DNA of 62,920 bases, filler included, from Octopus bimaculoides (GCF_001194135.2; 4 parts of 3 records of this genome joined end to end with filler, not necessarily neighbours in it), one strand, 5' to 3'; counted from the first letter of the whole stretch, positions 400 to 41,996 are shown. Numbers and translations: made by a program. The notes: generated by a model not told the origin, from the sequence alone.

Positions 400-558
400 T
401 GTTATAACTGCATACTTTTATTCCGACATATGTTTCGAAGAATTACAATTTATGCGATCCATAGGATTCGGCGATGTTAAACATCGGCGATTCCTATGGA
501 TCGCATAAATTGTAATTCTTCGAAACATATGTCGGAATAAAAGTATGCAGTTATAACA
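400..558. mobile_element. Near-perfect 159-bp fold-back element (runs into gap) with hammerhead-like 3' half on each arm; probably Penelope-like pLTR-derived
   Basis: Arms are reverse complements with only 2 mismatches, near the centre GATGTT-A-AACATC. The right arm reads ATTCC(490-494)...GAAAC-ATAT-GTC-GGAAT-AAA (522-541). Confidence 0.75.
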
Positions 559-1185
559 NNNNNNNNNNNNNNNNNNNNNNNNNNNNNNNNNNNNNNNNNN
601 NNNNNNNNNNNNNNNNNNNNNNNNNNNNNNNNNNNNNNNNNNNNNNNNNNNNNNNNNNNNNNNNNNNNNNNNNNNNNNNNNNNNNNNNNNNNNNNNNNNN
701 NNNNNNNNNNNNNNNNNNNNNNNNNNNNNNNNNNNNNNNNNNNNNNNNNNNNNNNNNNNNNNNNNNNNNNNNNNNNNNNNNNNNNNNNNNNNNNNNNNNN
801 NNNNNNNNNNNNNNNNNNNNNNNNNNNNNNNNNNNNNNNNNNNNNNNNNNNNNNNNNNNNNNNNNNNNNNNNNNNNNNNNNNNNNNNNNNNNNNNNNNNN
901 NNNNNNNNNNNNNNNNNNNNNNNNNNNNNNNNNNNNNNNNNNNNNNNNNNNNNNNNNNNNNNNNNNNNNNNNNNNNNNNNNNNNNNNNNNNNNNNNNNNN
1001 NNNNNNNNNNNNNNNNNNNNNNNNNNNNNNNNNNNNNNNNNNNNNNNNNNNNNNNNNNNNNNNNNNNNNNNNNNNNNNNNNNNNNNNNNNNNNNNNNNNN
1101 NNNNNNNNNNNNNNNNNNNNNNNNNNNNNNNNNNNNNNNNNNNNNNNNNNNNNNNNNNNNNNNNNNNNNNNNNNNNNNNNNNNAT

Positions 1186-1535
1186 AGGATCGCGGTTTCG
1201 ATTCCCAGACCGGGCGATGTGAGTGTTTATTGAGCGAAAACACCTAAAGCTCCACGAGGCTCTGGCAGGGGATGGTGGCGAACCCTGCTGTACTCTTCTA
1301 CCATAACTTTCTCTCACTCTTTCTTCCTGTTTCTGTTGTACCTGTATTTCAAAGGGCCAGCCTTGTCACACACTGTGTCACGCTGAATATCCCCGAGAAC
1401 TACGTAGAGGGTACACGTGTCTGTGGAGTGCTCAGCCACTTGCACGTTAATTTCACGAGCAGGCTGTTCCGTTGATTGGATCAACTGGAACCCTCGACGT
1501 CGTAAGCGACGGAGCGCCACCAACAACAACAAGTA
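1186..1535 (+). mobile_element. tRNA-headed SINE (family E), 5' end at gap
   Basis: B-box-like GGTTTCGATTCCC and an (AAC)n tail. A related head sequence occurs inverted at 62770-62920. Confidence 0.7.
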
Positions 1536-1732
1536 AAACAAGTTAGTGTCTCTACTATAGAGGAAGGAAGGGTTTTGATGATCTGGGAGAGATAATTCGG
1601 GATTTTAGTGATAGCCGCTAGGTGAACCTTATCGATAATTGTTGTCTTGGGTAGTATTTATTCCGAGGCCAAGGCTGGAAAGAACAGCGCTAAAGAGATC
1701 AGTATTAGAATCCACGACATTGAGGTATTGAT

Positions 1733-1780
<48 letters not shown>

Positions 1781-2344
1781 ATACATACAATGAATATTCG
1801 TACTTTTATGCAGGAAGTATTATTAGAGAGAATAGGCGGATGTGTTCGTATGGGTGGCTCTGACTATATGTGCGTGTCTATGTGTGTGTACATGTATTAA
1901 GCATGTTATTGAAATAGTATTTTTCTTTATTCTGATAATTTAAATTTTAATAAATTCTATTGTATTCTATTCTTGTAATCATATTATAAATTCATTGGTT
2001 CCACTTCGATATTTCTTCAGTCTGATATTAAAAAAAACACACCCCTTTCTCTATCTAGTCCCCACCACCACCACCATCTCATTATCTTGCTAAGATAATT
2101 ACGTTGTATAGAATGTGGTTATTAGATCTAACCTGATGTGCTCCAACCACTTTATCATTTGCTGTCACCGAAGGATGCTGTCACATCCTACAGTTTCGCT
2201 ACGGTCATGAACTCATTCTACTTGCAAGAAGAGGTCGCCTAAGCCCCCTCATAATCATACCTTACTGTCTTATAATACAGATACATTGGACAGTACGGTC
2301 TCTGATATATACTTGAATACGTATATACGTATTATGTGTACGCA

Positions 2345-2377
2345 GATAGATAGATAGATAGATATATAGATAGATAT

Positions 2378-2435
<58 letters not shown>
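2345..2435. repeat. (TAGA)n/(GA)n compound microsatellite
   Basis: Direct inspection. Confidence 0.95.
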
Positions 2436-2438
<3 letters not shown>

Positions 2439-3099
2439 GATGATGGACTCACCCATTGATGATGAGCGTTTAGCTTTTACCGAAGGACNNNNNNNNNNTA
2501 TATGTATATATGTATATATGTATATGTGTGTGTGTATCTTTCTCTAGACTGAGAATTAAGTTTATAAGTGCGTGTGTATATATATATATATGTGTATGTA
2601 TATATATGTGTGTGTGTGTTTGTATGTGTGTTTGTGCTTATGTATATTTATGAATATATAAATATGTATACATGAATGCATGTGTGTATGCATATGTATG
2701 AATATGTGTATGCATACATACATACATACGTACGTACATACATACATACATATAAACATACATACAGACATGGACAGACAACAGACACACAGGCAGATAG
2801 ATAAACCGAATGAATTATGTTGTGTATATGAAATCGTTAGGTGATGAAACAGTTCACACAGTCACGTAAGGATGTAGGAACCCTTAAGATGCTTTCATGT
2901 TACTTATACAGCCAAACTGGGACCGGATGCATTGATCTGTTCTTATCTTAAAACATAAATCGATAATTATGACGGGTAATCCATTTCCGTCATAAATTCT
3001 TTGCACTTACATAAGAAAGGTCATTCCCGTTCTGCATACTCGAGCGCGCACGATTATATGTGTTTGTGAGTGTGTATATACACAAAAATTTAGATATAT

Positions 3100-3151
3100 A
3101 TATATGCAAATATATATATATATAAAGAAAAATGTATGCATGTACGTATCA

Positions 3152-3190
<39 letters not shown>

Positions 3191-39067: not shown

Positions 39068-39115
<48 letters not shown>

Positions 39116-39182
39116 NNNNNNNNNNNNNNNNNNNNNNNNNNNNNNNNNNNNNNNNNNNNNNNNNNNNNNNNNNNNNNNNNNN

Positions 39183-39228
<46 letters not shown>

Positions 39229-39244
39229 TATCTTCAATACTTCT

Positions 39245-39625
39245 TTCTGTCATTGGACGGCAGCCATGCTGGGCCACCACCCCTAAGGGACTTTCAAACA
39301 AATTGACCCTGGTACTTATTTTTTAAAAGCTTGGCACTTATTCTATCGACCTCTTTAGTGAAACTGTTAAGTTACAAGGGTGTAAATACATGAACATCTT
39401 TTGTGAGATGGTGTGGCTGACCAACACACACACACACACACACACATACACACATATCAATACATACATACAACAAGCTTCTTTCACTTTTCATCTACCA
39501 AATACACTCACCAGGCTTTGGTTAGCCCACGGCTATAGTAGAAGACATTTGCCCTTGGTGCCACATTGTGGGACTGAACCCAGAACCATGTGATTGGGAA
39601 ACAAACTTCTTACCACACAGCCTAC
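39245..39625 (-). mobile_element. SINE family B, long form
   Basis: Similarity to other copies. Confidence 0.8.
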
Positions 39626-40825
39626 ATATAAATAAATCATCGTCATTGTTTAACATCCACCTTCCATGCTGGCATGGATTTGAGTACTCTCCCAAAATTG
39701 CTGGCCATGTGCCAAAATTTGAAACCATTATTATCCTTGTATTTGTTTTGATATTAAGATTGAAACAAACCAACCTTGTTTATAAAAAAAATTTGTACTT
39801 GGGTTTGCACTGAGCAAATTTCATTCCCACACTCATCTGGACCCTGGTTGAGAACATCTGCTTTAGATGTTCAAGTTGTGATGATATAGAAAGTTGTTTC
39901 ATCTTGCAGTTAAGATTCTCCATTGTATTTGACTTTGGTTTGTTTAACTCTAGTCAAGATGGACTTAGTAAACCTGACATTTGGTTTTGTAACCATCTTA
40001 TCTTTTATCTACACATGCTGTATCTCTACAATGATCTTATCAAATGTATACTTCTATTTTTTTTTTTAAATTTAAAGGAGATTTAAAGGAGATTCAGTTA
40101 CTATATCTAGCAAATTAAATGACAACGTGGTGGGCCCCATCAGCTCTTGCTTTTGCTGTTGTAGTTGGTGGCAGCGGCAGTGGCACTGGTGGTAATGGTT
40201 GTGGTGGTGGTGGTGGTGGTGGTGGTGGTGTTGTCTGGAAAATAAAATGGTATAATAAATAGTTTACTTTTGATAATGTGATTTTATTTCTATGAAAATT
40301 AAAAGCTTCAGAGATATTTTTATTTCGTTTCTCATTTATTTTTACAGGTGGGGATTGAGTGTTTAGAAATGGAATTAAATTGTAAATCATGTTTAGAGTA
40401 CAAATATCATCATCATCATAATAATAATAATGATACATAAGAAAAGTCAAAGAAATAATGTAATTCTTTTAATTTGGGATGGTGACTAACTCAAATAGAA
40501 ATTATTGAAAATGTCTATTTGAAGAATCTAACAACAGACTTGTAGATAGCAAAAATATTTTTCTTTTAAATTCTTCACATGCATACACATATATCATAAG
40601 TGTCCCGTCAGTCAGTCAGAATTTCATAGATAAAACACCAGTTAAAGCTGCTAATTTTAAGGGACACCTGTTCTACCTTTAAATGTACACTAATAGGAAT
40701 GGACGTATTAATAAATTATATTTATTTAAAAACTTCTTTTATTGTAATTTGAGAACAATTGTATGTATATTTTCTTACACATTATGCAATCTAATTAATA
40801 TTGAATGTTGAGAAAGATGTGTGGC

Positions 40826-40827
<2 letters not shown>

Positions 40828-40865
<38 letters not shown>
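40828..40865 (-). repeat. 38-nt poly(T), possible retroposed poly(A) tail on the minus strand
   Basis: Uninterrupted T run with a sharp boundary. Confidence 0.6.
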
Positions 40866-40866
<1 letters not shown>

Positions 40867-41349
40867 TTATCATGGTGAAGGACGGAGTTCGAAATATGAA
40901 AATGAAACCATTAAAGTGAAAGTATCTGTCATTACAGTATGGAAATGTGATTGTTTCAGTTTTGATACTGAAAGAGTTTTCTTTTACTGTCAGTGTTTTT
41001 CTTTCCTTTCTTTTTGTATTTGTTGTTGGATCGTTCGTAAAGGTTCATAAGGGAAAGTAGGAATTGAAAGGGTTTGTAAAGGAAGAGGAAATTAGATTCT
41101 ATTAGGGGGAAAATGTTATTTTGTGTAGTTTAATGGATTTTATTCGTAATTGTGTGTTATTTTTATGGAAAAAATGATGCTGTGACCTAAGTTATGGTAA
41201 TTAGAATAGTAATTCCGATTCTTTCATTCAAGAAATTTGGAATTGTGTCAATGTATATATATATGTATATATATATATATAAACGTATATATGCGAGTAA
41301 AAATAAATACAAAAAAGGTGGGTTTTTTTGTATGATTGTGTATAGAGGA

Positions 41350-41996
41350 ATATATTATTTTGTTTAAAAGAGTTCCAACACTGTCTGTTTTTTATGTTTT
41401 ATTTATATTCCTGCAGAACTAATGTGGGGTATAGAATATGGAATATACAATATATAATATAATATACAATATACAATATAAAATAAAATAAAATAAAAAT
41501 GGATGGCACCATGAAAGAAAGTATTGAATGTAGATGAAATATTGAGTGTTCAATATAAAGGATCAAATATATAAATATATATATATAAATAGTCTCCTTT
41601 AGAGAGACTTAGAAATATTAATAACTCTATATATAAATATATATAAATATATAAAGGCGACTCGAGTTTCAGGGCTATTTCCCTTCGTCATGGCCGGTAT
41701 GACAGACTTTAGCCCTGAACCTCGAGTCACCTTTATCTATTTATATATATTTATATATATATATTTATATATATATATTTATATATTTGATCCTTTATAT
41801 TGAACACTCAATATTTCATCTACATTCAATACTTTCTTTCATGGTGCCATCCATTTTTATTTTATTTTATTTTATATTGTATATTATATTATATATTGTA
41901 TATTCCATATTCTATACCCCACATTAGTTCTGCAGGAATATAAATAAAACATAAAAAACAGACAGTGTTGGAACTCTTTTAAACAAAATAATATAT
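41350..41996. mobile_element. 647-bp near-perfect fold-back centred on two head-to-head hammerhead-like motifs
   Basis: The outer ~235 bp of the arms are identical except for one 7-bp unit. The left arm has a ~38-nt insert; the inner stem has a few mismatches; the central spacer is 32 nt. Confidence 0.9.
41656..41695 (-). ncRNA. Minimal type I hammerhead ribozyme-like motif (core variant)
   Basis: GGC-C-ATGACGA-AGGG-AAATAG-CCCT-GAAAC-TCGA-GTC-GCC: stems I, II and III are all present. The core has one extra A relative to CUGANGA. Confidence 0.65.

Follow-up and report, generated by a model that had tools for sequence, protein, structure and literature searches.

The 62,920-nucleotide (nt) window of Octopus bimaculoides DNA analysed here (the whole stretch, 35% GC and rich in microsatellites, dispersed repeats and N gaps) contains four palindromes, denoted E1 to E4, which had been predicted from the sequence to be fold-back elements, each built from head-to-head hammerhead ribozyme motifs. 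Self-comparison and arm alignment confirmed all four where they had been placed. As discussed below, E1 to E4 likely represent the hammerhead-bearing 3' ends (pseudo-long terminal repeat, or pLTR, plus tail) of four families of Penelope-like elements (PLEs), inserted as very short copies that probably became hairpins through fold-back self-priming. The self-comparison identified six local inverted-repeat loci in the window, namely E1, E2, E3, E4, 47203-47430 and 61594-62428. The four palindromes and the features within or next to them are:

400-558: E1, palindrome with 79-nt arms, the right end abutting an N gap
425-436, minus strand: GAAAC-ATAT-GTC of the E1 left arm, the 3' half of a hammerhead core, without upstream CUGANGA and helix II
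522-533, plus strand: GAAAC-ATAT-GTC of the E1 right arm; 43 nt separate it from the turn, and the best core upstream of it has 2 mismatches and no helix II
27494-28103: E2, old palindrome with outer arms at 27494-27557 and 28056-28103 and inner arms at 27606-27742, the left end in a (TA)n microsatellite
27580-27615, minus strand: decayed minimal-hammerhead-like motif of E2, the core with 1 mismatch (at A6), a GTAG-capped helix II, and AAAAT/AT in place of GAAAC/GT
27746-28055, plus strand: dispersed repeat resembling a short interspersed element (SINE), with a (GAT)n end, in the expected place of the E2 right-arm motif; matches 24075-24353 and 37125-37246
32412-32525: E3, palindrome with 57-nt arms, 7 mismatches in 56 columns (49/56 identical)
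32439-32450, minus strand: GAAAC-GGCC-GTG of the E3 left arm, the triplet not being NUH
32487-32498, plus strand: GAAAC-AGCT-GTA of the E3 right arm, 18 nt from the turn, with a 4-bp hairpin upstream and no CUGANGA
41294-41349, minus strand: one-sided extension ("tail", ~56 nt) on the E4 left arm, belonging to the repeat family, with no counterpart on the right arm and adjoining a (TA)n run
41350-41996: E4, palindrome with arms of ~290-330 nt (283/287 identical), indels of 7 and 34 nt, and a 32-nt asymmetric centre
41656-41695, minus strand: near-complete type I hammerhead of the E4 left arm, with a 3-bp helix I, C3 changed or one A inserted in the core, a 4-bp helix II and GAAAC-TCGA-GTC
41710-41728, plus strand: counterpart in the E4 right arm, which restarts in the loop of helix II and reads GAACC, the CUGANGA half being absent

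Arms, turns and hammerhead remnants

All four elements consist of head-to-head inverted copies with a palindromic junction. Substitutions between the arms are crowded at the turn in E1 and E4. In particular, all four substitutions of E4 lie in the inner 51 of 287 columns (P 0.0009, post hoc), one of them bordering the 34-nt indel, and both mismatches of E1 (77/79 columns identical) are in the inner 12 of 79 columns (P 0.02, also a post hoc test). The outer arms of E2 are identical in 55 of 60 columns. None of 28 pairwise comparisons of the arms, two PLE 3' ends and one further motif exceeded shuffles (lowest p ~0.06); E1 to E4 are therefore unrelated to each other, as the absence of obvious arm homology had suggested.

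The motif that had drawn attention to these elements, GAAAC-N4-GUH, corresponds to no more than the 3' half of a type I hammerhead. GAAAC-N4-GT occurs 16 times in the window (6.08 expected), and GAAAC followed by a self-complementary 4-mer and GT is found at six sites in four loci. In comparison, 300 block shuffles contain 0.42 such sites on average, with none of the shuffles reaching six and one reaching four; this form of the motif was selected post hoc, with the data already seen. Within the window, the motif is thus enriched over shuffled sequence. Five of the six sites face outward, in E1, E3 and E4, the three palindromes for which this orientation had been claimed. The distance from motif to turn is 43, 18, 7-40 and ~80 nt across the four elements, despite arms of 57-330 nt. 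The sixth site, GAAAC-ACGT-GTA (58055-58066, minus strand, within 58055-58085), is located outside any visible palindrome. An N gap lies 31 nt away from it, a U3-A8-type box is found 8 nt upstream, and helix II is missing; the site may be half of another hairpin severed by the gap.

With a strict type I descriptor (CUGANGA box, helix II of at least 4 bp, GAAA, palindromic helix III, UH, and helix I of at least 3 bp), the window contains no complete hammerhead at 0, 1 or 2 core mismatches. An Rfam scan at E values up to 10 also yielded no hammerhead among the best 150 of 363 matches, which are miRNA and small RNA families on microsatellites and hairpins. The GAAA box, palindromic helix III and an NUH triplet are present together in four of the eight arms (both arms of E1, the right arm of E3 and the left arm of E4), and are decayed or lost in E2. 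No arm has an intact CUGANGA (or U3-A8) box: the left and right arms of E4 show 1 and 3 mismatches to CUGANGA, respectively, and the best matches in E1 and E3 have 2 mismatches and lack helix II. Helix II itself comprises 4 bp in the left arm of E4, 3 of 4 pairs in E2, and a 4-bp hairpin without a core in E3, and is missing in E1. The left arm of E4, in which core, helix II, GAAA, palindromic helix III and GUC are all in register, is accordingly the only one of the eight arms with a near-complete hammerhead, and it still does not pass the strict descriptor; both boxes with helix II are retained nowhere else. Judged from these motifs, E1 to E4 are not pairs of ribozymes and are probably not active hammerheads, contrary to the original prediction, and most of the palindromes keep half a hammerhead and likely cannot cut themselves. 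Two copies of a hammerhead on opposite strands are unable to form a cleaving dimer inside one transcript (Cervera and De la Pena, 2014; PMC4209133).

The motif in E2 had been described as a CpG-decayed relative of the others, which was not confirmed: five changes, three of them at CpG, separate it from the canonical motif, it is present in a single arm, and it lacks the 4-nt loop III. We consider 27580-27615 a putative decayed minimal hammerhead. The four covarying 8-mers of the original prediction reduce to fewer cases. Both ACAGCTGT and ACGGCCGT come from E3, one from each arm, and are separated by two CpG transitions (the observed/expected ratio of CpG in the window is 0.41); the three elements hence provide three independent loops. 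Covariation within the E3 loops was rejected given that the difference consists of these two transitions, and loop covariation as a sign of selection is not supported. Also, ACGGCCGT is followed by G and hence has no cleavable NUH triplet. A pair of ggc/gcc versus ggt/acc in E4 was considered as covariation of helix I and rejected because the register differs and the site is a CpG.

The predicted folding energies of the E1, E3 and E4 hairpins are -125, -70 and -420 kcal/mol, respectively. The 96-nt centre of E4 folds at -49.5 kcal/mol with the motif paired off, compared to -6.4 kcal/mol for the hammerhead stretch alone, so that the proposed competition between ribozyme folds and the hairpin finds no support.

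The E4 family in DNA and RNA reads

The E4 sequence was compared at 85% likeness with reads from two DNA runs (of two studies) and two RNA runs (of a third study). The coverage comprises the outer left arm, the tail and the right flank, with the centre, the hammerhead and the right arm located outside it; in the covered parts, the reads showed no joints and no piles of starts or ends. The two DNA runs gave 4,016 and 4,370 contig records matching the outer left arm, with a summed depth ~45,500 and 40,000 times that of the single-copy right flank, a ratio of depths that is not equal to copy number. Dividing the summed depth by 31 overlapping words would give a floor of ~1,300-1,500 copies for the family. 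The E4 arm is a high-copy repeat.

The depth of the family continues across 41294-41349, the tail of the left arm. At 41350, in addition, the match stops in 21 and 23 DNA contigs and in 20 and 21 RNA reads, which pass into letters of the (TA)n/(CA)n type; this is the same place where the right arm of E4 ends. The family accordingly has two classes of ends, that is, a one-sided tail, which is a Penelope signature.

Among the 40 listed of 56 variant rows, 27 are RNA-only differences, with a frequency of at least 5% in RNA and below 2% in DNA. They comprise 17 T>C and 6 A>G changes, together 23 of the 27, in addition to three G>A and one T>G. The 5' neighbour is A or U at all 23 sites, compared to 49 of 66 background positions (P ~0.001). 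The highest levels are observed at 41373 (36-41%) and 41432 (20-37%). Two groups of loose-end reads have a hyper-edited appearance, namely one of 30 reads in which 7 of 7 changes are T>C and one of 14 reads in which 6 of 7 are A>G. This pattern looks like A-to-I editing of duplex RNA at the level of the family and is no proof for the E4 locus itself, given that the RNA and DNA are from different individuals, that the reads may come from any copy of the family, and that the libraries are unstranded. The proposal that transcripts of these elements are double-stranded RNA (dsRNA) and substrates of ADAR is supported to this extent, for the E4 family.

Origin of the palindromes

Inverted pLTRs of PLEs have been described in detail. 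Arkhipova et al. (2013; PMC3846280) reported head-to-head inverted pLTRs with a one-sided tail and palindromes of 18 and 38 bp at the pLTR 5' ends, and proposed self-priming. Minimal hammerheads with a palindromic loop 3, high diversity among families and a U3-A8 variant are known from metazoan PLEs, including pairs of minimal hammerheads on opposite strands 100-700 bp apart in Schistosoma (Cervera and De la Pena, 2014; PMC4209133). The one-sided tail has been presented as a PLE hallmark along with clade motifs and a bias towards microsatellites (Craig et al., 2021; PMC8557442). For Poseidon of Anolis, initiation in the tail and an uncleaved RNA template were demonstrated in vitro (Frangieh et al., 2024; PMC11167929). 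That E1 to E4 form a new class of elements is therefore not supported, as inverted pLTRs with self-priming (PMC3846280) and opposite-strand pairs of minimal hammerheads (PMC4209133) have both been published, and E1 to E4 are best read as further examples of this insertion structure.

The likeness to known systems is extensive but incomplete. With the inverted pLTRs of endonuclease-bearing Penelope elements, as described in PMC3846280 and PMC8557442, the octopus elements share the head-to-head arrangement, the palindromic junction, one shorter arm, the one-sided tail and the AT-rich or microsatellite targets; unlike them, E1 to E4 have no attached open reading frame (ORF), are 114-700 bp long and show no target-site duplication, and the tail of E4 is ~56 nt. 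Three of four features of PLE inverted pLTRs are thus present in the set, namely the head-to-head junction, the one-sided tail (in E4) and the AT-rich or microsatellite target; the last is a weak criterion in a window full of microsatellites, with E2 and E4 inside (TA)n, E1 ~20 nt away from it, and E3 not in such a setting. The type I hammerheads of metazoan PLEs (PMC4209133) have in common with E1 to E4 the GAAA box, the palindromic helix III/loop 3, the diversity among families and the opposite-strand pairs, whereas in E1 to E4 only one of eight arms keeps both boxes with helix II and none passes the strict descriptor. Poseidon (PMC11167929) is similar with respect to the tail produced by alternative starts of reverse transcription, the AT-rich targets and the uncleaved hammerhead template (E1 to E4 keep both sides of the GUC); in contrast, no enzyme or ORF is identified for the four octopus families, and fold-back lies outside the Poseidon assay. 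Retrozymes, defined as tandem units (bioRxiv 10.64898/2026.07.22.740005), are likewise non-coding and PLE-related and carry a type I hammerhead; non-LTR retrozymes, however, are built of directly repeated tandem units, each with its own complete hammerhead, whereas E1 to E4 are inverted pairs with broken cores. This candidate was rejected because no arm is directly repeated within the window and complete hammerheads are absent.

The origin of E1 to E4 from PLE ends is supported by the enriched outward motifs, the near-complete hammerhead of E4 and its one-sided tail, and fold-back priming, which had been suggested as the cause, is supported by the mismatches at the turn in E1 and E4. Further points in favour are the short distance between motif and turn relative to the range of arm lengths, the (TA)n surroundings, the presence of two types of PLE endonuclease fragment in the window, and the editing pattern of the E4 family. 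Read on the plus strand, E4 consists of the tail, the antisense arm, the antisense hammerhead, the turn and the sense arm without a tail. This would be the order of a first complementary DNA (cDNA) strand primed at a nick in (TA)n, extended through an uncleaved hammerhead and then folded back. In such a scheme, a PLE enzyme would nick AT-rich DNA, and the RNA template would be uncleaved, with reverse transcription beginning in its tail. The growing cDNA strand would pass the hammerhead and halt within ~20-80 nt past the GAAA box, whereupon its 3' end would snap back and copy the arm; for E1 and E4, a short imperfect hairpin that the template already contained is the probable site of this snap-back. 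The central mismatches of E1 and E4 fit such an older, imperfect template hairpin priming a fresh outer mirror. The second arm would end before the start point, leaving the tail on one side, and the turn would delete or pair off the CUGANGA half, so that the copies are expected to have no ribozyme activity. Transcripts reading through them would form long duplexes that are edited by ADAR. A simple snap-back exactly at helix II was rejected, since there are ~30 extra nt at the turn of E4 and the stem of E1 would be 42 bp.

Several observations weigh against this reconstruction. No target-site duplication was found by flank comparison at any of the four elements (the right flank of E1 is a gap), no arm is linked to a PLE ORF in the window, and the 3' ends of the two PLE endonuclease fragments in the window (see below) show no homology to any arm in comparison with shuffles. 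The tail is seen for E4 alone and is longer (~56 nt) than the published 30-40 bp; depth close to the edge of the stretch is distorted, hence no tailed fraction was estimated, and the fold-back points of other copies of the E4 family are outside the read coverage. The test for a mismatch gradient was devised after the alignments had been seen; E3 shows no significant gradient (7 mismatches within the inner 42 of 56 columns, P 0.12), and the central mismatches would also be compatible with gene conversion of the outer arms or, in the case of E1, with an artefact of the library. The hammerhead ancestry of E1 and E3 rests on the enrichment because only 12 nt of the motif are seen, and that of E2 requires five changes. 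Finally, the E4 arm pattern had no match in metagenome and viral collections, and the E2 helix II pattern matched 52 metagenome loci, which are chance matches because none of the 52 has a CUGANGA-like box upstream and none resembles the window.

Three other explanations were considered. Copying of the whole hairpin as a non-autonomous unit from a palindromic master would account for the apparently inherited imperfect inner part of E1 and E4, and the very abundant and heavily edited E4 arm suggests many transcribed hairpin copies. However, the combination of near-perfect outer arms with an imperfect centre is expected if the outer mirror was made at insertion, the tail of E4 is one-sided, and an RNA that is fully paired and hyper-edited would serve poorly as a template for faithful copying; we regard unit copying as clearly unlikely. 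The long terminal inverted arms and the high copy number are also points in favour of miniature inverted-repeat transposable elements (MITEs) or foldback DNA transposons, in which case the GAAAC motif would be incidental or a subterminal motif bound by transposase; E3, which starts and ends with TA, and the presence in the window of what we take to be a decayed mariner-like element with inverted ends point in the same direction. This origin is nevertheless improbable given the failure to find target-site duplications, the asymmetry of the E4 ends by ~56 nt of family sequence, and the location of the motifs near the centre and not at the ends, with both hammerhead boxes and helix II of E4 in register. 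E4 does not qualify as a MITE.

That E1 and E4 are fold-back artefacts of assembly or library preparation could be suspected from their 97-99% perfect arms, from the N gap at which E1 stops, and from the fact that no contig spanning the centre of E4 was seen in the read coverage; the same imperfect centre and perfect outer arms would result if a library molecule snapped back on a small natural hairpin. The E4 arms, however, differ by the 7- and 34-nt indels and four substitutions, the single-copy right flank is present in two independent DNA studies, the end at 41350 is shared across the family and coincides with the end of the right arm, and the editing is a sign of duplex RNA in vivo. The divergence of E2 and E3 is too great for such an origin, and an artefact seems very improbable.

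The reading of E1 to E4 as fold-back insertions of PLE 3' ends bears on dsRNA in cephalopods. Among the species compared by Porath et al. (2017; PMC5625713), octopus ranks highest in the share of near-perfect dsRNA-forming loci (4.4 per 1,000); the accessible text leaves octopus repeats unannotated and names no source for this excess. The same study describes hyper-edited repeats, with a palindromic Harbinger element in Xenopus and a massively edited Penelope element in lizard, which resemble the E4 family in that self-folding or PLE repeats are the targets of ADAR. E1 and E4 make up 1.2% of the window, and a large part of the near-perfect dsRNA of octopus may come from hairpins of this kind. 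A bolder proposal, which we offer tentatively and consider rather unlikely as a whole, is that there are high-copy non-coding PLE-like families in which an imperfect hairpin spanning the hammerhead is inherited, keeps the ribozyme locked and programs fold-back, so that most insertions are long near-perfect hairpins and a main source of the dsRNA load and hyper-editing in octopus. If true, this would tie non-coding editing in cephalopods to one retroelement mechanism. The crowding of mismatches at the turn provides a direct genome-wide test of the PLE self-priming model of 2013, which is still unproven. Our literature search, which did not extend to Repbase, Dfam, supplements and most subscription papers, returned no paper on these palindromic families or on Penelope and editing in octopus.

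Endonuclease fragments and other features of the window

The window contains two fragments of PLE endonucleases, one of them followed by a hammerhead-like motif:

50903-51295, plus strand: PLE-A, GIY-YIG fragment (Atlas score 0.97, PF01541 in 26% of cluster members) with a Cys-rich linker
51360-51393, plus strand: putative decayed minimal-hammerhead-like motif 65 nt past the stop of PLE-A, with a U3-A8-type core and a broken helix II
52485-52844, minus strand: PLE-B, C-terminal endonuclease fragment, 34/66 residues identical to the C-terminus of a 713-amino-acid protein

PLE-A has stops upstream of the fragment, and the motif that follows it is unrelated to E1 to E4. The 713-amino-acid relative of PLE-B contains reverse transcriptase motifs, DKT and a CxCX5C linker (identified by eye); by the clade motifs given in PMC8557442, PLE-B appears to be Hydra-clade-like. 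Pfam assigned no family to either fragment nor to 8 of 38 relatives of PLE-B, and Atlas gave no usable match for PLE-B. Both fragments were rejected as partners of E1 to E4, being dead and without 3' homology to the arms, and the suggested mobilisation of the palindromes by PLEs at 50810 and 52490 is thus unsupported.

The two remaining inverted-repeat loci lack the GAAAC-palindromic-4-mer-GT motif. At 47203-47430, 50-nt arms (84% identical) enclose a 130-nt spacer, and at 61594-62428, three blocks that are 82-86% alike flank a decayed ORF fragment (61859-62317). This fragment, presumably mariner-like from its appearance, was assigned no family by Pfam. Remnants of other retroelements include a fragment of an apurinic-type endonuclease of a long interspersed element (57089-57508; Pfam Exo_endo_phos_2, E 4.9e-05, below the cut-off) and a decayed reading frame on the minus strand (5861-6277; blank in Pfam), which we take to be the restriction-like endonuclease end of a non-LTR retrotransposon. 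A search of the window for tRNA genes found none. The 100-base gaps at 12473-12572, 44309-44408 and 58098-58197 each consist of two 44-N runs flanking a 12-letter spacer and are likely a scaffolding marker.

Inverted copies (85%) of a GC-richer dispersed repeat are located at both ends of the window (1186-1331 and 62773-62918). Two abundant SINE-like families, with members 68-88% alike, are present in both orientations, one at 12628-12781, 15869-16042, 19627-20000, 22667-23078, 35604-36005, 39238-39622 and 43584-44646, and the other at 5695-6486, 14083-14210, 37358-37547, 43091-43524, 44664-45109 and 48859-49092. Some inverted SINE-like neighbours could also form duplex RNA.

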